DNA of 64,000 nucleotides from Shigella phage MK-13: the sequence record MK509462, one strand, 5' to 3'. A program made the translations under genes and the position numbers. The notes under the pieces were generated by a model. That model was not told where the DNA came from, ran no database searches, and worked only from the letters and a program-made list of their open reading frames with translations. This document shows, piece by piece, positions 3,244 to 60,043 of the stretch (its first letter is position 1; each line of letters opens with the position of its first letter).

Positions 3244-3471
3244 ATGTACCTGAAAAAGATCGTGAAGAAGCCGAAAGGTGATGTTGTCGAAGTATGTCTC
3301 ATTGAGGCTTACGTTGACTCCTGGAACAACGAGCAGCGTTACTTCATGGTCGACACGATGGTGTATGTGCCAGCCTCTCACCTGAACCGTGATTTCATCA
3401 CAACCGAAAATGTCGTCCGCTGGGAGATTGCAACGCAGTCCGATATCGACGAACATCCCATTTTGAACTGA
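3244..3471 (+). CDS. hypothetical protein (75 aa)
   Basis: ORF with GAGGG RBS. Confidence 0.35.
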   Translation: MYLKKIVKKPKGDVVEVCLIEAYVDSWNNEQRYFMVDTMVYVPASHLNRDFITTENVVRWEIATQSDIDEHPILN

Positions 3472-3483
3472 AGGATCTATATC

Positions 3484-3927
3484 ATGTGTGATAAGAATTT
3501 CATTTTCATTAGTCCCGCCAAGAAACAGTTCTTCCGTAGCTCCGTTGGGGACAAGGTGGAAGGTTTCCGTAAACTCAAAGATTATCGCCTGGCATGCGGT
3601 GATGTTGATTTTCAGAGCTTCGACAATGATCGCCAGGATTTGAACGATGAGGGTTGGACAGAAGTTCCATCCCCACAGTTTATCGACGTCAAGCTGTACT
3701 ACATGAAGGACAGTGGGAAGTATTATTCAGAAGGTGTGATCAAAATCAACCGTGGGGAGGCCGAGGCCGAACCTGCTAAGTCCTGGATGGAGACTATGGA
3801 TAAAATCCGCTATCTGCTTGACTCAGGCAATTTGCCTGGTTTGGTTAAAGGTGCCCGGTACGAGGTCTTCGTGACCGGAGAAGGGCATCCAGGTGGGTAT
3901 CCGGCGGCATTCCACATTAACAACTGA
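3484..3927 (+). CDS. hypothetical protein (147 aa)
   Basis: ORF preceded by conserved aaggaNctatatcATG initiation context. Confidence 0.5.
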   Translation: MCDKNFIFISPAKKQFFRSSVGDKVEGFRKLKDYRLACGDVDFQSFDNDRQDLNDEGWTEVPSPQFIDVKLYYMKDSGKYYSEGVIKINRGEAEAEPAKSWMETMDKIRYLLDSGNLPGLVKGARYEVFVTGEGHPGGYPAAFHINN

Positions 3928-4224: not shown

Positions 4225-4273
4225 TCATTCCATAAGCAGCACAACACTGACTCTGAAATGAAGGAAATACATC

Positions 4274-4540
4274 ATGGCACGTTCAATCCACGATTTTAAA
4301 GACTCTGATATCCTGGCTTTCATCATGGACGGTCGAATGGTAGTTGTAAACGATGGCGACGACCGCCACAATACCACTCTGGTGATGAACAACGAAGTTG
4401 TTTACAGCAACACCCGCGAAGGCATGATCAAGATGCTTCAAAACCCTCAGCGCTTCGGCAGCAAAATACACAAAGATTACAAAAGCCGCTGCCCGATGCT
4501 GGCTCAGCGCCTGATTTGGGCGATGCAAAGCGCCGCATAA
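4274..4540 (+). CDS. hypothetical protein (88 aa)
   Basis: ORF with AAGGAA RBS downstream of promoter cassette. Confidence 0.45.
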   Translation: MARSIHDFKDSDILAFIMDGRMVVVNDGDDRHNTTLVMNNEVVYSNTREGMIKMLQNPQRFGSKIHKDYKSRCPMLAQRLIWAMQSAA

Positions 4541-4565: not shown

Positions 4566-4595
4566 GTCTCCCATTTGAATTGAAGGAACTATATC

Positions 4596-4877
4596 ATGAC
4601 AACTAAAGCGCAATTGATCGAAGCCCTGAATGCTGGCGCTATCACCCACTCTCGTTACAAAGTAACATTGCAGCAATTTGTTGGTATGGCCGTCGGAAAT
4701 GCCAAATTCACCCCAATCTCTTCCCCTGAAAAATTTCCAGTTAAGGCCAGCCAGCCGAAGTTTTCGGTAGTTTGCCAGGGTGAAGAAATCACCGCTCTGT
4801 GGGAATATGATAACATGTATTTTGAATGTTCTGACGGCGTGTTAGCATACCATGTGGAAGGCGAGCATTTGTTCTAA
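4596..4877 (+). CDS. hypothetical protein (93 aa)
   Basis: ORF with conserved aaggaactatatcATG context. Confidence 0.45.
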   Translation: MTTKAQLIEALNAGAITHSRYKVTLQQFVGMAVGNAKFTPISSPEKFPVKASQPKFSVVCQGEEITALWEYDNMYFECSDGVLAYHVEGEHLF

Positions 4878-5894: not shown

Positions 5895-5931
5895 TCACCT
5901 AAATACCCCCATCATCCATGGGGGTATTTTC

Positions 5932-10988: not shown

Positions 10989-11328
10989 ATATTACTCTCG
11001 TGTGTTGGTTAACATGACATACATATTATTTCGCGTGCATGTTTAGACCAAATAAATTAATTTTGCTGTTGAATAAAAATTGCTTTCCTGTTGAACAAAT
11101 GGCGCGGTATTATACGAGTTGTGAGTGTTAACGAACAACGAGTATTTGTTTTATGAGCGAAGCGAATAGGATTAATAAAGGTTATTATCTTTAATAAAGT
11201 CCATAAATGCCGAAGGCATTTATTAATAACGCGTAGCGCAATTTGCCACTTGTTCTATAAGCACAACACAGCGATACTAGATTGCGTCAAACATGACTTG
11301 AACCCCACTATATTTTGAGGATACATAA

Positions 11329-11997
11329 ATGCAAGAGATCACTCTCTCCGAACGTACACTCCAGTTGCTGGCCAACTTTGAGACCATCAACCCATCTATC
11401 GTTCTGACACCGGGTAAGATGCTGCGCAGCATTAACGATTCGTCTACTGTTATCGCCGTGGCACAGATCGAAGAAGACTTCCCGTTTGAGTTCCCTATCC
11501 TGGACCTGACCAAACTTCTGGCCATCCAGCGCCTGCCTTCCTTCAAAGGCGGTAAAGCCGAATTCCATCAGGACTACATCCTGTTGAAAGGCGAAAGCTC
11601 TCAGCTGCAATTCTGGCGTTCTGCTAAAGAACTCACTGTTGTTCCGGCTGACACCATTGAACTGCCGTCTGTCGACTTTGAAGCGATCATCACTCCAGAG
11701 AAGATGAAAGAACTGACCCGCGCCTGTTCTACCCTCGGTCACAAGACTGTGCGCCTGGTTGCTCAGGGTGGCAAAACTCGTCTGGTTGCAACCACCACTA
11801 CCCTGGATAACTCCAACAACTACACCGTTGAGCTGGGTGAAACCGCGCTGCCGGACTTCGTCATGCCACTGGACGTTGCCAACCTGAAGATGATCGAAGG
11901 CAACTACACTCTGCGTGCCTGCGCTGAGCTGCAGATGGTGAACTTCCAATCATCCGACGCGACGATCAATTACTTCGTCGGCGCACAGATTGAGTAA
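11329..11997 (+). CDS. sliding clamp, gp45-like
   Basis: Length and sequence pattern match T4 gp45; precedes gp44/gp62 as in T4. Confidence 0.9.
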   Translation: MQEITLSERTLQLLANFETINPSIVLTPGKMLRSINDSSTVIAVAQIEEDFPFEFPILDLTKLLAIQRLPSFKGGKAEFHQDYILLKGESSQLQFWRSAKELTVVPADTIELPSVDFEAIITPEKMKELTRACSTLGHKTVRLVAQGGKTRLVATTTTLDNSNNYTVELGETALPDFVMPLDVANLKMIEGNYTLRACAELQMVNFQSSDATINYFVGAQIE

Positions 11998-26083: not shown

Positions 26084-26133
26084 CGGCGGGGTATGATTAC
26101 CCCGTCTATTTGAAATGCAGGAACTATATCATG
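26084..26133 (+). repeat. intergenic hairpin cassette copy 1 (near-identical copy at 26643..26692)
   Basis: cggcggggtatgattaccccg...atttgaaa...tatatcATG; about 40 of 50 positions shared with copy 2. Confidence 0.7.
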
Positions 26134-26637
26134 ACCGATCAACAAATTCAAGATTTATTTTACCTCGCCCATGATAAGTCCCACATCATGCGCCCCGGTA
26201 CTGTTTCCCCTGCCGTCCGTGATCTGGTGCAAGAATTACGCGAACCACAGACGACCACACTTTATCGCGGGCTGCCTAAGGAGGACGTTGCGCGTTTAGA
26301 GATGTTGTTTGAACGAGGCGACATGTTCCAGACATGGGATTCTTGTCTTAGCTTCAGTGAACTGAAGCATGTGGCCAAACAATTTTCTAAATCGTACGGA
26401 ACCAAAGCTGTTGCCCGCATTTGTTACAAACATCGAAACGGACTCCCGGAGGGGCTTAATGTCTATGGTTCTCTAGAAAAATTTGTGAACAAAGGCGATG
26501 AATCAGAAATGGATATGCTGGACTTGGCGTCCATGGAGAAAGAATGGATATTCTGCCAGCCTCGCGTCATACCAGTTTCAAGAAAAATGGCAACAGACGG
26601 GACGATGGTTTTTACCGTATCACTTGTTACCCTATAA
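26131..26637 (+). CDS. hypothetical protein (168 aa), flanked by direct-repeat cassettes
   Basis: Start placed at ATG after conserved ctatatc context; bracketed by the 26084 and 26643 repeats. Confidence 0.5.
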   Translation: MTDQQIQDLFYLAHDKSHIMRPGTVSPAVRDLVQELREPQTTTLYRGLPKEDVARLEMLFERGDMFQTWDSCLSFSELKHVAKQFSKSYGTKAVARICYKHRNGLPEGLNVYGSLEKFVNKGDESEMDMLDLASMEKEWIFCQPRVIPVSRKMATDGTMVFTVSLVTL

Positions 26638-41203: not shown

Positions 41204-41251
41204 TCATTCCATAAGCAGTACGACACCAACTTGAAACGAAGGAACTATATC

Positions 41252-41623
41252 ATGAACGCGATCAAAACAGATTTCACCAAACCAGAAATGTCTATCCTTG
41301 AATCCCTTGGCTTCGGCGTTGTAACCCTCGAAGGTCAGATTGTTGACCGTGGTTTGGTAGACAACGTTGAAATGGGTATCACGACAAACGGTGATCGCGA
41401 CGCTACGATGAAAGCGGTCCACGCAAAATTCCTGGCTGAAGGTTGGAATTTCAAAAATTCCCCAGTGAATGGTTTGCCAGTTGACCACATGCACCACACG
41501 ATCTTCCTGAAAGATGGGTTCCAGATTGGATTCTACTCCATGGACGCCATCGTCAAATCCGGTAAAGAACTGATCGAGTCTAAAGATCACTACCTTTCCG
41601 TAAGTAAATCCACCTGGGCATGA
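41252..41623 (+). CDS. hypothetical protein (123 aa)
   Basis: Conserved aaggaactatatcATG context. Confidence 0.45.
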   Translation: MNAIKTDFTKPEMSILESLGFGVVTLEGQIVDRGLVDNVEMGITTNGDRDATMKAVHAKFLAEGWNFKNSPVNGLPVDHMHHTIFLKDGFQIGFYSMDAIVKSGKELIESKDHYLSVSKSTWA

Positions 41624-55546: not shown

Positions 55547-55596
55547 TCCCAGTAATTCATTGGCATTCGCCACAAATTGAAAGCGGGAACTATATC

Positions 55597-55836
55597 ATGA
55601 CCGACTCCGAAGTCTACGACGCCTCAATGAAATACCACGCCATGACAGCCAAACGCGGCTGTGCTGCTGACAAGGTCTATTGGATAGGTGAACTCAGAAC
55701 CCTCCGCGCCGTGGTCAACCACGAAATCATTATGAATCGCGGCAACAACGGTCAAGGTAAAGACCGGGAAGAATTGAAGGTTGCTCGTGAACGCCTTCGC
55801 TTTGGTCTGACCAAAGCCCTTGAATATGTGAAATAA
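55597..55836 (+). CDS. hypothetical protein (79 aa)
   Basis: Conserved gggaactatatcATG context. Confidence 0.4.
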   Translation: MTDSEVYDASMKYHAMTAKRGCAADKVYWIGELRTLRAVVNHEIIMNRGNNGQGKDREELKVARERLRFGLTKALEYVK

Positions 55837-55847
55837 GGAACTATATC

Positions 55848-56309
55848 ATGACAAACAAAGTACTCACCAACCCACTGCACAACTTCGGTTACATTCAACT
55901 CCCTCTGGTGATCGACACCCTGTACGCCGACGACAAAGAAGAGATCTGCTGGTCACCCGCTGCACTGATTGAACGCGAAATCTTCAAGTCTGTTGTTGAT
56001 GTTATGTTCCGTATCGGTCGCAATGGACCTCTGGTCTACCTCGGCAAAGTAACTGAACTGAAGACAAGCCACAGTGAACGCTTCCTGCGTATTGATACCA
56101 CAGGGTGCTATCAGCAGGACTTCAACACACTGCGTAACTATGTACTGATCAACCGTCCGGTCAGCCAGCACCGCCCGTACCTGACGTCAATGCACATCGA
56201 CAATTTCATCACCGACGTACACCTCCGCGCCGAAACCCTCCATGAAGAGGAAACAGGCCGAGCTATCGACACAGTCTTAAATATGGTTGTGATCACCCTG
56301 GCGGAGTAG
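55848..56309 (+). CDS. hypothetical protein (153 aa)
   Basis: Conserved aaggaactatatcATG context. Confidence 0.45.
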   Translation: MTNKVLTNPLHNFGYIQLPLVIDTLYADDKEEICWSPAALIEREIFKSVVDVMFRIGRNGPLVYLGKVTELKTSHSERFLRIDTTGCYQQDFNTLRNYVLINRPVSQHRPYLTSMHIDNFITDVHLRAETLHEEETGRAIDTVLNMVVITLAE

Positions 56310-57115: not shown

Positions 57116-58726
57116 TTACTCTTCGGTGCCGAAATTACCACCATTGTCTTTTAATTCTGCCTTGATATCAATCTCACCTGGTCCCGTAGGGGATGCAGGG
57201 GTTGCACCTGACAGAGAAGAAGCGCGACCAGCACCTTCGGCATATATGATGTTACCATTAATCGTCTGAGCAACCGTCAGTTTGTCGGCGATGATCTCTG
57301 TTGCCAGAATCTTAGGAACCTTCAACGTCCCGCCGACCTCCAGAGTCTCGCAGATGATGCGCAGAATATTCTGTGCTTGCAACTCAGCCAGGTCACTGAA
57401 TTTCATCAGCGCTGTACCCGCAACCACGTTGGAGTAGTTGTTGGAGTGAAGGTGATAGACCTCGCCAGTCTTGCGCTGCACTTCAGTTCCTTTGACCGTC
57501 AGGTTGTGGTCCCCGCCGACATAATAGCGCTTGTCAAACATGGTCAGGTCATAATGATCCTTCACTGACTTGTTGACGACGTCGCCGTTCGGGAGCATCT
57601 GTTTGTAGGAGCCGGACATGTGCATCCAATGAAGACGCTCACCACCAGGAGTGTCGTCCACCTCCATTATGTGACCTGCTCGGGATGCCATGACGTTGTT
57701 GTACGGGTACTTGGAGCCACCCGCTGCCGGAACCATAGTTTCGCCCGTGTTATCAATATCCTGTACGCGCCCTGTAGGAGCCGGAGTTGCCTGCTCTTTT
57801 GGGGTACGATCAGGGATAGGCTCAGACCATTTCCCGTTCTGTTGTGCTGGGGCGGCTGAAGCTGTATTCGCCGGACCAGGCCAGCGGTAGCCCAGGACTG
57901 ACGAACGGCTGAATCGGCTGACCTTCACTGAATCGGATTGGTTGCCACCGATACACCAGACATAGTTTGCATCGAACTTCTGTACAAACGCCACGTGTCC
58001 AAATGTAGGGTTGTTACCGCGCCGGAAGACTACGATAGCACCATATTGTGGCGCTGACAGTGCACTACCCCATGTAAGGTAAGATCGGGCAAGAGCGGAG
58101 CGCGTAGACGTGTATCCAGCCTGCAACATAACCCAGCCCACGAACGCCGCACACCACGACACTTCATCTTCAGAAGCACCAAGGGAGGTTGTCTTGTGAT
58201 ATTCTATAATGCGCGGGTTGTTGTTGAACTTTCCGGCGTACTCCTTGACACCCAGCTCACCACGAGCGATGGTCATCCATTTTTCAGGATCATACCCACC
58301 AACAGGTGGTTGTGGATCTGGTTGTGGTTCGTCTTCTTGTTTCACAGGAACGTCAGTGACGGCGTTGTACGCCTGACGTTCTACCGATTGAACGACCTGT
58401 CCGAGAGCCAGCGGGTTCGTGTCAGCTCCATCAGTGGGACTTGCCCCAGGCCAAGTCCAAGTGATACGCAGGTTCTGGTATGCTTCGTCAAGGGCGAACC
58501 CCATAACCTCAGTGCCAGGAATGATACCCGTTGGAGACCAACCTAAACCAGCAGAGGAGGCGTTTGAAGCAGGCATCAGTACCTTCGCCCATGGGAGTTT
58601 GTCCGTAGGCAGGAGGACGGTGTCATCAGTGTGGACGCCATAGATGCGGACGGCGACGCGCCCGTTTTGGTCTGGATCGTTGACATCTTCAACGGTGCCA
58701 TAAAACCATCTCATATTGTCTAACAT
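57116..58726 (-). CDS. baseplate central spike gp5-like with CHAP-type peptidoglycan hydrolase domain
   Basis: N-terminus MLDNMRWFYGTVEDVNDP matches T4 gp5 OB-fold start; central WCAAFVGWV...GHVAFV resembles CHAP Cys/His peptidase rather than T4 lysozyme. Confidence 0.7.
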   Translation of the reverse strand: MLDNMRWFYGTVEDVNDPDQNGRVAVRIYGVHTDDTVLLPTDKLPWAKVLMPASNASSAGLGWSPTGIIPGTEVMGFALDEAYQNLRITWTWPGASPTDGADTNPLALGQVVQSVERQAYNAVTDVPVKQEDEPQPDPQPPVGGYDPEKWMTIARGELGVKEYAGKFNNNPRIIEYHKTTSLGASEDEVSWCAAFVGWVMLQAGYTSTRSALARSYLTWGSALSAPQYGAIVVFRRGNNPTFGHVAFVQKFDANYVWCIGGNQSDSVKVSRFSRSSVLGYRWPGPANTASAAPAQQNGKWSEPIPDRTPKEQATPAPTGRVQDIDNTGETMVPAAGGSKYPYNNVMASRAGHIMEVDDTPGGERLHWMHMSGSYKQMLPNGDVVNKSVKDHYDLTMFDKRYYVGGDHNLTVKGTEVQRKTGEVYHLHSNNYSNVVAGTALMKFSDLAELQAQNILRIICETLEVGGTLKVPKILATEIIADKLTVAQTINGNIIYAEGAGRASSLSGATPASPTGPGEIDIKAELKDNGGNFGTEE

Positions 58727-59069
58727 ATTGAGTTCCGGTTGTCAAACAAGGATTTGAAGGTATTTATGCGCAGCGGATTTTGCCTTATATACTATAGGAA
58801 GCTCTGCTTCCGTTCATTTTATTTGTTATTCGATCCTATTCGCTTCGCTCATCACACCGCCTTATGCAGGCAGCACCATTCCAATGCCATGGAGGCATAA
58901 GAGCGAGGCAATAACTGTACACCTCAGAACACTCCTTGAAAAATGGTATTTTACTGACAATCTGATTCAAAATAGACGATCCCCAACAAATGACTCAGGA
59001 ACAAGCCCATTATAACAATTTCAGGTAAAGAGAGCACGCGTTAACCTGTTTTACAGTTAAGCCAATAAA

Positions 59070-59089
59070 AATCCCGCCGAAGCGGGATT
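59070..59089 (-). terminator. rho-independent terminator (minus strand)
   Basis: aatcccgccgaagcgggatt with A-run upstream on + strand, i.e. T-run downstream on minus strand. Confidence 0.6.
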
Positions 59090-59236
59090 ACTGTTTCTTA
59101 GACAACCTGACCTTGAGGGCTTCGGTTAACAAGTCAAGATGCCACGGCATCGACTCGTTGATTTCAAATATGCTATAGCCGTGTAACTTCAATTCATCAC
59201 ACATCACGAAGTAGGATAGTAAATCAGTTTCAAACA

Positions 59237-60043
59237 TTAGATGAAAATTTCATTAATGCTATTGAATTCGATCTTGTGTTCCTTACCACACTTCGGACAC
59301 TTGATTGAACTCTTGTAGTGGATGCGCGGTATTTTGTGGAAGAAGTTCTTCGTAATGCTGTCGATGACATCTGATTCGATGTTATCCTTCACCCACCCAA
59401 CAAACGCTTCTTTCACACGGCGGCGCTCGGTGGCCTCTTCCGGAGTGATCCCGATTTCTTCAGGATTCTCAACCTTCCACACCTGACCGTCATCGTCGTA
59501 CAGACAGTCGATAAAGGTGGCCAGCATCATCTCAACACTTGCAGCATCAGACAGCGCCGTAGCGTCTGAGAAGGAAGGTTGGCGCATCTTGAGGTGATAT
59601 CCGCCTGGCAGGTCAAACGTCTCCTGGAAGCCGTCCTGTGCAATGCATTTTACATTGTTCAGCGGGATAGGCAGAGTCAGTTCCTGCTCACAGGGAACCA
59701 TCTGGCGCTTTTCTTGGCCATCTCCCAGATCGATCGTTTCTTCAACCTGATTATTGCACTTGTAGCGAATCTTCATCAATTCGCCGATGGCGATCATGCG
59801 CATACGGATGAACACTTCCTCAACAACACCGATTGGCAGTTTGCTGAAAGGCGCACCTGCATTCACACACTCGCTGAAGAGGCTCTCCATCATGGCCGCG
59901 CGTTCTTCAATCGGCGTTTGCGGATCTGACACCTGAAGTAATAAAGTTTGTTGCCCCGCAGTAAAGGCGCGATATTTGATCACAGTAGGCCAAAAGTCGC
60001 TTTTATATGTCTTTTCTGTTCTGGGCAATGATGGCAAATTCAT
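59237..60043 (-). CDS. hypothetical protein with C-terminal zinc ribbon (268 aa), possibly baseplate-associated
   Basis: GGAG RBS; CPKCGKEH near C-terminus; upstream of gp5 on same strand. Confidence 0.5.
   Translation of the reverse strand: MNLPSLPRTEKTYKSDFWPTVIKYRAFTAGQQTLLLQVSDPQTPIEERAAMMESLFSECVNAGAPFSKLPIGVVEEVFIRMRMIAIGELMKIRYKCNNQVEETIDLGDGQEKRQMVPCEQELTLPIPLNNVKCIAQDGFQETFDLPGGYHLKMRQPSFSDATALSDAASVEMMLATFIDCLYDDDGQVWKVENPEEIGITPEEATERRRVKEAFVGWVKDNIESDVIDSITKNFFHKIPRIHYKSSIKCPKCGKEHKIEFNSINEIFI

Follow-up and report, generated by a model that had tools for sequence, protein, structure and literature searches.

The 64,000-nucleotide (nt) stretch of Shigella phage MK-13 DNA analysed here (sequence record MK509462; the whole stretch is referred to below as the window) contains two regions of 340-360 nt that are free of open reading frames (ORFs), one upstream of the sliding clamp gene gp45 (site 1) and one upstream of the baseplate hub/lysozyme gene gp5 (site 2), and the two regions share the 20-nt sequence ATGAGCGAAGCGAATAGGAT. 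The window corresponds to positions 40744-104743 of the Shigella phage Ag3 genome, reverse-complemented, and the region around the motif is 99.8-100% identical to Ag3, Salmonella phage SKML-39 and close relatives (Agtrevirus, Ackermannviridae). Exactly two occurrences of the 20-mer are present in the window, at 11153-11172 on the plus strand and at 58833-58852 on the minus strand, which bears out the exact inverted recurrence reported in the initial annotation apart from a 2-nt shift of the second copy (placed there at 58831-58850). Each copy is oriented towards its downstream gene, as had also been described, with 157 nt separating the end of copy 1 from the gp45 ATG (11329) and 107 nt separating the end of copy 2 from the gp5 ATG (58726).

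The recurrence is not accidental. Dinucleotide shuffles gave a chance expectation of 0.01 matches for the 20-mer, with two or more matches in none of 100 shuffles, and gapless extension lengthens the repeat to 25 nt at 92% identity (11148-11172 against 58833-58857). No third copy was found in the window at up to three mismatches, and the genome-wide search that the initial annotation had called for returned, at the same tolerance, only these two copies in the whole genome of the near-identical phage Ag3 (158,006 base pairs, bp). The shuffles together with the two-copy count in Ag3 rule out a chance repeat, and a genome-wide regulatory motif is ruled out by there being two strict copies, with looser descriptors occurring at shuffle frequency. 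The 20-mer is non-random and strictly two-copy, and is no dispersed regulatory word. Both places are also widely conserved. More than 270 phage records match both intergenic regions at 68-100% DNA identity, from lineages that include Agtrevirus, Limestonevirus, Kuttervirus, Klebsiella phages such as May and Menlow, and Serratia phage IME250, and this identity is comparable to that of the adjoining coding-gene ends that the queries also covered. The motif sits in one of the best-conserved blocks both in the 12-sequence alignment of site 1 and in the 17-sequence alignment of site 2. Chance frequency combined with a lack of conservation, the outcome that the initial annotation had named as counting against its proposal, was not what we observed.

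Compared across four or more Ackermannviridae lineages, the 20-mer varies as a hairpin (hpB), and it is the most conserved hairpin of a larger fold. The consensus over all hpB copies is A-(T/C)-GAGC-loop-GCGA-(A/G)-T, which is kept at site 1 in 12 relatives, and the site 2 stem is likewise kept in relatives. The nucleotides just preceding GAGC and just following GCGA co-vary, reading T..A at sites 1 and 2 of Aglimvirinae and C..G elsewhere; in an alignment of site 2 with a third family member (site 3, described below), this closing pair (56-83) is CG in 14 sequences and UA in 4. Between constant flanks, the centre takes lengths of 3 to 18 nt, with loops GAA, GTA, TTCA, AAC and ATA, a 13-nt insert at site 3 in Ag3 and P46FS4, and a 7-bp inner helix extension (GAGCGAGGG...CCCTCGCGA) at site 3 of Kuttervirus. 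The invariant GA dinucleotides on the two sides are opposed, forming tandem G.A/A.G mismatches between an inner 2-bp G-C/C-G helix and an outer helix, and at site 1 further outer pairs lengthen the hairpin to 11148-11172. Such tandem mismatches are a stable non-Watson-Crick RNA motif. A competing minimum free energy fold of site 1, in which the motif pairs with an upstream U-run, is specific to Aglimvirinae and is lost in Kuttervirus and Klebsiella phages, and it was not adopted. Because the flanking pyrimidine:purine pair covaries, the centre is free in length and the G.A pairs face one another, the conserved unit of the 20-mer is, on this comparative evidence, a single-strand hairpin and not a duplex protein site.

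These features bear directly on the two proposals of the initial annotation. The first, a DNA binding site for a phage or host regulator, found no support, in that the motif is non-palindromic, has a centre of 3-18 nt between fixed flanks and undergoes a compensatory U:A to C:G change. A double-stranded operator serving a common regulator of the clamp and baseplate genes would account for a conserved motif within promoter-containing intergenic regions, and the record of phage LIMEstone1 places the -35 and -10 boxes of a putative middle promoter over the motif, on the opposite (minus) strand. However, no dyad symmetry is present, the variable centre would upset the fixed spacing that a duplex site needs, substitutions at paired positions are coupled, and G.U pairs make the fold strand-specific; a promoter in this minus orientation at site 2 would moreover fire into the terminator of the preceding gene, and the only basis for the LIMEstone promoter predictions was resemblance to T4 consensus sequences (PMC3296691). 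We therefore regard a duplex operator as very improbable. The second proposal, part of a shared leader element, stood up well, with the 20-mer belonging to a conserved structural module common to long ORF-free regions upstream of unrelated genes.

At site 1 the element consists of hpB and a second hairpin, hpA, which the initial annotation had overlooked and which lies 8 nt upstream of the 20-mer. It follows the same plan as hpB, carrying two tandem G.A motifs 5 bp apart; its innermost pair changes from C:G to U:A among relatives, and another of its pairs is either U:A or U.G. An A/U-rich, UAA-rich tract follows hpB in each element of the family. At site 1 this tract contains a 21-nt A/T-rich unit, TTAATAAAGRTTATTATCTTT, directly after the motif (11172-11200), present in 1.3 copies in the window, in 2 copies in CECAV050 and in IMGVR_UViG_3300045988_107072 (UViG107072), and in 3 copies in A221; Tandem Repeats Finder reported no tandem repeat for this tract in the window. 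The palindromic hairpin that comes next is kept in Aglimvirinae and in Kuttervirus with a different loop and is replaced in Klebsiella phages. Further downstream, and outside the shared family, the gp45-proximal leader (11243-11328, plus strand) is itself highly conserved and comprises C(A/G)CTTGTTCTATA, a small hairpin GCGATactagATTGC and CACTATATTTTGAGGATAC.

Site 2 is composed differently, with hpB preceded by a central domain made up of a pseudoknot candidate and the hairpin P3. The first helix of this domain, S1, spans 5 bp, pairing AUGCC (58898-58894) with GGCAU (58888-58884) at site 2 and CAGCC with GGCUG at site 3, and its pairs 6-20 and 7-19 change from AU/UA to CG/AU between the paralogs. 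The S1 loop UCCAU (58893-58889) can pair with a downstream AUGG (58879-58876) to give an H-type pseudoknot candidate, supported by one covarying pair in which A:U is replaced by C:G in 6 of 20 sequences. Compensatory changes in both directions (C:G to U:A and U:A to C:G) are seen in P3, which also holds a U.G pair in 18 of the 20, and the sequence GCCUCC(A/C)UGGC is invariant. RNAalifold, which is blind to pseudoknots and G.A pairs, recovers S1 and P3 unaided. Counted over 19 pairs in 20 distinct site 2 and site 3 sequences, standard pairs fill 97.4% of cells and six pairs change on both sides, for a structure that was derived from these same related sequences, partly homogenised by conversion. 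The covariation score was reached by none of 500 shuffles, and slid-partner controls were 30-49% paired. The pairs are kept by compensatory change above controls, which is the general signature of a conserved structured RNA. Downstream of the element, the GC hairpin at 58797-58811 also has compensatory variants in relatives (GGATGC..GCATCC and GGCGGC..GCCGCC), whereas the site 1 hairpin differs among relatives in its loop only.

This region of site 2 could alternatively be read as coding, with the motif forming the 3' end of a small ORF of 44 amino acids (58836-58970, minus strand) that ends in CDERSE and a stop codon. The frame is open in 16 of 16 relatives that carry the GCCTCC(A/C)TGGC anchor, which share the peptide MPPWHW(N/K)G and have the stop codon in or beside the motif. 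We nevertheless rejected the reading and give it almost no weight, since there is no conserved start codon or Shine-Dalgarno sequence, the frame is shifted by indels of 1-2 nt and by loop lengths of 3, 4, 13 and 18 nt, the amino-acid changes coincide with base-pair covariation, and sites 1 and 3 have no equivalent, with stop codons falling within hpA. The ORF is also unannotated in Ag3.

The third member of the family, site 3, lies outside the window and was likewise missed by the initial annotation. It is located in Ag3 between the baseplate wedge gene gp6 and the divergent orf218. The 26-nt core of hpA recurs there exactly (26/26, at 134878-134903 on the minus strand; blastn E 5e-5), with an outer stem of CTTY/RAAG in place of ATAC/GTAT, a compensatory replacement, and a 92-nt stretch that is 73% identical to site 2 (E 2e-8) closes with hpB. 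Site 3 is composed of hpA, the pseudoknot candidate, P3 and hpB, and it is kept in 16 relatives. With a covariance model of the central domain plus hpB, site 2 scored 88 bits, site 3 69 bits and site 1 18.8 bits (E 0.0055), and there was no further match in the window or the Ag3 genome. In IMG/VR, pattern scans located the modules twice per genome in complete Ackermannviridae genomes, and also in four shorter contigs; a scan of 596 gigabases of contigs for the pseudoknot pattern gave scattered matches in unrelated bacteria, at the level expected by chance for 16 specified bases. Judged from these comparisons, there are three paralogous, ORF-free structured elements, each oriented with its downstream gene, in every Ackermannviridae genome examined. 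In distant relatives the central domain is replaced and the two G.A hairpins are retained (in UViG164037 upstream of gp5, and in Serratia 3M-like phages upstream of gp6), and the pair of G.A hairpins looks like the ancestral core. Modules have also been exchanged between copies: in the mosaic genome UViG107072, site 3 carries the P3 of its own gp5-upstream element together with the extended hpB of Kuttervirus type, which points to recombination both between paralogs and between genera.

The variation further assigns the fold to one strand. The U.G pairs (in P3, and in the outer pairs of hpA and hpB) would read A.C on the complement and the G.A pairs would read C.T, and the conservation of the U.G pairs therefore identifies the gene-sense strand as the one that folds. 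Either an RNA transcribed towards gp45, gp5 and gp6 or the same strand as single-stranded DNA would be compatible with this. That the elements form a conserved, strand-specific, multi-helix fold is the part of our interpretation that we consider probable and hold with most confidence.

Compensatory changes cannot separate RNA from single-stranded DNA of the sense strand, and a role in replication has accordingly to be weighed, whether as an origin at which a promoter-driven structured transcript and an A/T-rich unwinding tract would form an R-loop that primes replication, or as hairpins in displaced single-stranded DNA. R-loop priming is described for T4 oriF/oriG and for ColE1 RNA II. The three sites are spaced ~41-71 kilobases (kb) apart in the 158-kb genome (Ag3 47.5, 93.9 and 134.8 kb), A/T-rich tracts follow hpB, and the 21-bp unit of site 1 varies in copy number. 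The centre of the 20-mer, GCGAAGC (GCGTAGC in some relatives), matches the d(GCGAAGC)/d(GCGNAGC) mini-hairpins, which are unusually stable in DNA. However, other copies carry the loops TTCA, AAC, ATA and TTT, which are not of the GNA type, or long inserts, the conserved unit is larger than a mini-hairpin in that it includes the tandem G.A pairs and the outer helix, the A/T-rich tracts of sites 2 and 3 are short (~20 nt), and a covarying pseudoknot is more usual for RNA. We find an origin or single-stranded DNA function quite unlikely, somewhat less so than a duplex operator.

Table 1. Features at and around the structured elements (window coordinates unless stated otherwise; a dot marks features without an assigned strand)
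Feature	Position	Strand	Description or basis
gp45, sliding clamp	11329-11997	+	Ag3 annotation
gp5, baseplate hub/lysozyme	57116-58726	-	Ag3 annotation
Site 1, ORF-free intergenic region	10989-11328		upstream of gp45
Site 2, ORF-free intergenic region	58727-59087		upstream of gp5
Site 3	Ag3 FJ373894.1 134709-135057		349-nt gap upstream of gp6 (baseplate wedge), divergent from orf218; outside window
TATTAT, -10-like box	11108-11113	+	conserved TA(T/A/C)TAT; overlaps outer 5' arm of hpA
hpA, 34-nt hairpin, two tandem G.A motifs	11112-11145	+	ATAC GA GTTGT GA GT gtta AC GA ACAAC GA GTAT
hpB, site 1 (20-mer copy 1)	11153-11172	+	core 11153-11167, AT GA GC gaa GC GA AT; exact match
A/U-rich linker after hpB, many UAA triplets	11173-11202	+	site 1 alignment
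Palindromic hairpin ATAAATGCC gaa GGCATTTAT	11203-11223	.	fold; terminator-like in both directions
Intrinsic terminator of upstream gene	59070-59089	-	scan; annotated terminator in LIMEstone1
Extended -10-like box TGTTATAAT	59009-59017	-	sequence reading; conserved TATAA(T/C/A)
Hairpin S1 and pseudoknot candidate, site 2	58875-58898	-	RNAalifold (S1), covariation
Hairpin P3, site 2, (G)CUGCCU gcaua AGGCGG(U)	58856-58874	-	RNAalifold, 6-7 bp
hpB, site 2 (20-mer copy 2)	58833-58852	-	core 58838-58852; exact match
A-rich linker after hpB, site 2 (AGGAUCGAAUAACAAAUAAAAUGAAC region)	58812-58832	-	
GC hairpin GGAAGC aga GCTTCC	58797-58811	.	followed by near-invariant TATA(A/G)TAT
Late-promoter-like box CATAAATA	58761-58768	-	35 nt upstream of gp5 start, downstream of element
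Shared initiation blocks	3467-3491, 4257-4281, 4579-4603, 26114-26138, 41235-41259, 55580-55604, 55831-55855	+	

The family matches no RNA family in Rfam. Rfam 15 gave zero matches in the whole window at gathering thresholds, and a search of the two regions at E values up to 10 returned only sub-threshold matches (RAGATH-36 at 17.8 bits against a threshold of 70, GA-cis at 13.9 against 34.7, and terminator-like tails). Literature searches found no relevant transcriptomes or noncoding RNAs for these phages and no mention of the elements, so that the family is absent from both Rfam and the searched literature. There is a local resemblance to the hammerhead ribozyme in the arrangement GA, short G-C helix with loop, GA-A, and site 2 reads UGAUGAGC...GCGAA. 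We rejected a hammerhead, as C3 and G5 are missing at site 1 and in all non-Aglimvirinae copies (UUACGAGC), with U in the place of G5 at site 1 and throughout the Kuttervirus and Klebsiella-phage copies, and G8-A9 and G12-A13 alone are conserved; positions 7 and 14 here covary as a base pair, and there is no stem I, stem III, cleavage site or Rfam match. A kink-turn was also rejected, with no three-nucleotide bulge present and the tandem G.A pairs of hpA and hpB flanked symmetrically by Watson-Crick pairs.

Signals around the elements constrain when they could be transcribed. At sites 2 and 3 the start codon is preceded, at a distance of 35-41 nt, by an invariant (C)ATAAATA / CTAAATA box, and LIMEstone1 annotates these boxes as putative late promoters; the site 2 version, CATAAATA, is invariant in 17 relatives and falls at the same position as a 'putative late promoter' in the LIMEstone1 record. 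The related sequence TAAATAYC occurs 7 times in the window against 1.4 expected (at 5900, 9081, 34000(-), 39806, 40395, 49448 and 58759(-), with position relative to genes checked for gp5 only), an enrichment consistent with its being the late-promoter core of this phage group. As these boxes lie downstream of the elements, late gp5 and gp6 transcripts would exclude them, and any element-bearing RNA must therefore start upstream and earlier in infection. At site 2 the strong terminator of the upstream gene precedes the element, so that transcription of site 2, if it occurs, requires a separate promoter, and the extended -10-like box TGTTATAAT could start such a transcript. Both upstream -10-like boxes, TGTTATAAT and the TATTAT of site 1, are accompanied by A-tracts and have no canonical -35 box. 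A T4 MotA-box reading of TTGCTTTC at 11079-11086 was rejected on spacing. The same upstream region of site 2 contains a near-palindrome, TTAACTGTAAAACAGGTTAA, at 59041-59060 (minus strand), between the terminator and the -10-like box, and GTTAAC is found also at 11126-11131, in the hpA loop, and at 11009-11014; the near-palindrome and GTTAAC could be a duplex operator or chance. Directly upstream of site 2 is a 49-amino-acid ORF (59088-59237, minus strand), the orf83 of Ag3, which is annotated as having 'no identifiable ribosome-binding site' and among PHROGs weakly matches a 'baseplate hub assembly catalyst' (phrog_634, E 4e-4).

Taken with the fold, this arrangement is best read as a structured RNA leader or small RNA that would be recognised by a common factor. 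In our proposed mechanism the elements would be transcribed as RNA from upstream host-type promoters before late transcription, and the G.A hairpins would all be recognised by a single trans-acting factor, most likely a protein; we favour binding of such a factor to the hairpin in its folded form. This factor would set the fate of the transcript, which would either stop at the downstream hairpin as an RNA of ~110-215 nt or be read through or stabilised into gp45, gp5 and gp6. The exact 20-nt identity of sites 1 and 2 would then reflect selection on the hairpin together with gene conversion between paralogs. We favour this full statement, including the RNA nature of the elements and the common trans-acting reader, though less firmly than the fold itself.

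Several observations weigh against it. A sigma-70 scan found no canonical promoter upstream of site 1 or site 2; by eye, TTGAAC and TATTAT at site 1 are 11 nt apart and TTTACC and TATAAT at site 2 are 9 nt apart, neither of which is canonical, and the sole -10-like box at site 1 overlaps the outer arm of hpA. The hairpins at 11203-11223 and 58797-58811 score as terminators only on the strand opposite the downstream gene, and the U-tracts that follow them in the sense direction are poor (UUUAUUAAU after a 4-bp core at site 1, UAUAGUAUAU at site 2); both hairpins may stop antisense read-through, besides or instead of sense transcripts. Generic G.A-hairpin descriptors, and GAGC-N3-4-GCGA, occur in the genome at shuffle frequency, and the motif is consequently defined by its conservation and not as an enriched pattern. 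Among neighbouring and divergent ORFs considered as binding partners, no Pfam domain was found and the PHROGs were of unknown function. Because the aligned sequences are related and converted, independent covariation events are fewer than the cell counts. Finally, the expression of the elements, the ends of their transcripts and their nature as RNA as opposed to single-stranded DNA are all deduced from sequence.

Two more specific readings differ in what the transcript would do. In the first, a version of the leader reading, the hairpins would act in processive antitermination, making RNA polymerase resistant to the hairpin terminator downstream and to those that come after it, either alone or with a phage or host factor. 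Lambda nutL/nutR and HK022 putL/putR are near-identical short hairpins in nascent leaders upstream of terminators, and the elements here share with them their low copy number per genome, opposite genome orientations with each copy sense to its own operon, and a position downstream of promoter-like boxes and upstream of hairpins. Long co-directional gene clusters are headed in this way, ~44 kb for gp45 and ~36 kb for gp6 (Ag3 annotation), and site 2 contains the octamer CGCTCTTA, which we take to be the lambda boxA octamer, at 58898-58905 (minus strand), just before S1 and ~45 nt before hpB with the central domain between. This octamer is not conserved, however, being degenerate elsewhere (CGCCTTTA in Kuttervirus, CGCCTTA in Klebsiella phages) and absent at site 1. 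A lambda-type nut site (CGCUCUUA-like boxA a few nt before a boxB hairpin whose pentaloop is GNRA-like) was rejected on the same ground, the exact boxA octamer being confined to Aglimvirinae site 2, and on the hpB loops, which are not boxB-like; a tandem G.A helix stands here in place of the GNRA-like boxB loop. Initiation at the late-promoter-like boxes of sites 2 and 3 would bypass the element and leave it out of late gp5 and gp6 transcripts, and the sense-direction terminators are weak. No N-, Q- or RfaH-like partner was found; to our knowledge, arginine-rich N peptides cannot be recognised from their sequence. The RfaH ops-like GGCGGT string GGCGGTGTGATG, which matches 8 of the 10 specified ops positions, was set aside because it is not conserved in Klebsiella phages. 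Antitermination proper appears to us a doubtful explanation.

In the second, the elements would be stand-alone early small RNAs, three paralogs acting in trans as decoys for a host or phage protein that binds G.A hairpins, or by pairing through the invariant, anti-Shine-Dalgarno-like CCUCC loop. The span from promoter-like box to hairpin is compact (~110 nt at site 1 and ~215 nt at site 2), the 3' end would consist of an A/U-rich tract and a hairpin, and the downstream late-promoter-like boxes would make the elements separate units. The invariance of GCCUCC(A/C)UGGC is in keeping with a pairing function, yet the CCUCC loop appears to be taken up by the pseudoknot. Folding energies speak on both sides, in that site 1 folds better than its shuffles (z = -3.85) and site 2 does not (z = -0.76), and the poor sense-direction U-tracts are a further difficulty. 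We judge independent small RNAs to be as doubtful a proposal as antitermination. Much the same low expectation attaches to the most ambitious form of the preferred leader reading, a hitherto unrecognised three-copy riboregulatory system in which a single dedicated factor, of phage or host origin, would read tandem-G.A hairpins in early leader RNAs and so switch the operons of the replication-gene cluster (gp45) and of the baseplate and structural clusters (gp5, gp6) through processive antitermination or attenuation, or through R-loop priming of replication. If true, it would constitute a timing mechanism without a described counterpart in T4.

The closest described analogue in T4 biology is the leader of T4 gene 32, in which a pseudoknot nucleates cooperative gp32 binding and an unstructured A/U-rich tract containing UUAA(A)/UAA repeats comes after it (PMC3014915). 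The elements described here similarly place a pseudoknot candidate or G.A hairpins before UAA-rich tracts. They differ in preceding gp45, gp5 and gp6 and in occurring as three paralogous copies. Their A/U tract also stops 60-130 nt short of the start codons, whereas the T4 tract covers the ribosome-binding site, and nothing like the G.A hairpins figures in that review's description of the T4 operator (PMC3014915); we claim no sequence similarity. A translational operator of the gene 32 type was rejected on its genes and on the position of the tract. A second comparison is with the PeSLs of T4-like phages, repeated intergenic regulatory cassettes in which a stem-loop is joined to an early promoter and which undergo recombination among themselves (PMC4122927). 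Exchange between paralogs is seen in the present family too, but PeSLs are short, numerous and located in hyperplastic regions beside variable ORFans, whereas here three long (100-215 nt) multi-helix elements occupy core-gene junctions and covary across genera. Membership of the PeSLs was rejected in view of the three copies only, the lack of a scored sigma-70 promoter and a promoter-like box spacing that departs from the PeSL consensus.

The elements matter chiefly for the expression programme of Ackermannviridae, the ViI-like phages (CBA120, Vi01, LIMEstone, Ag3) that are widely studied for therapy and biocontrol, and for which, in the literature searched, this programme is derived by analogy to T4 only. 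As conserved as the neighbouring core genes and situated at the heads of three transcription units, of which the gp45 and gp6 clusters are long, they offer a testable handle on the timing and coupling of sliding clamp and baseplate or structural gene expression. They would add to structured phage RNAs a motif class that combines C-GA-G / C-GA-G tandem mismatches with a compact pseudoknot. Even if they prove to be leaders that merely stabilise the transcript, they would provide useful annotation for ~270 deposited genomes, in which these regions of 340-360 nt are unannotated in the records inspected.

A separate feature of the window concerns translation starts elsewhere. At least seven gene starts share an initiation block, (TTTGAA..)GAAGGAACTATATCATGA, in which the Shine-Dalgarno sequence, the 8-nt spacer ACTATATC and the ATG are all kept (Table 1), and the fixed spacer suggests either a common translational operator, for example for a phage RegA homologue, or an embedded promoter-like CTATAT box.

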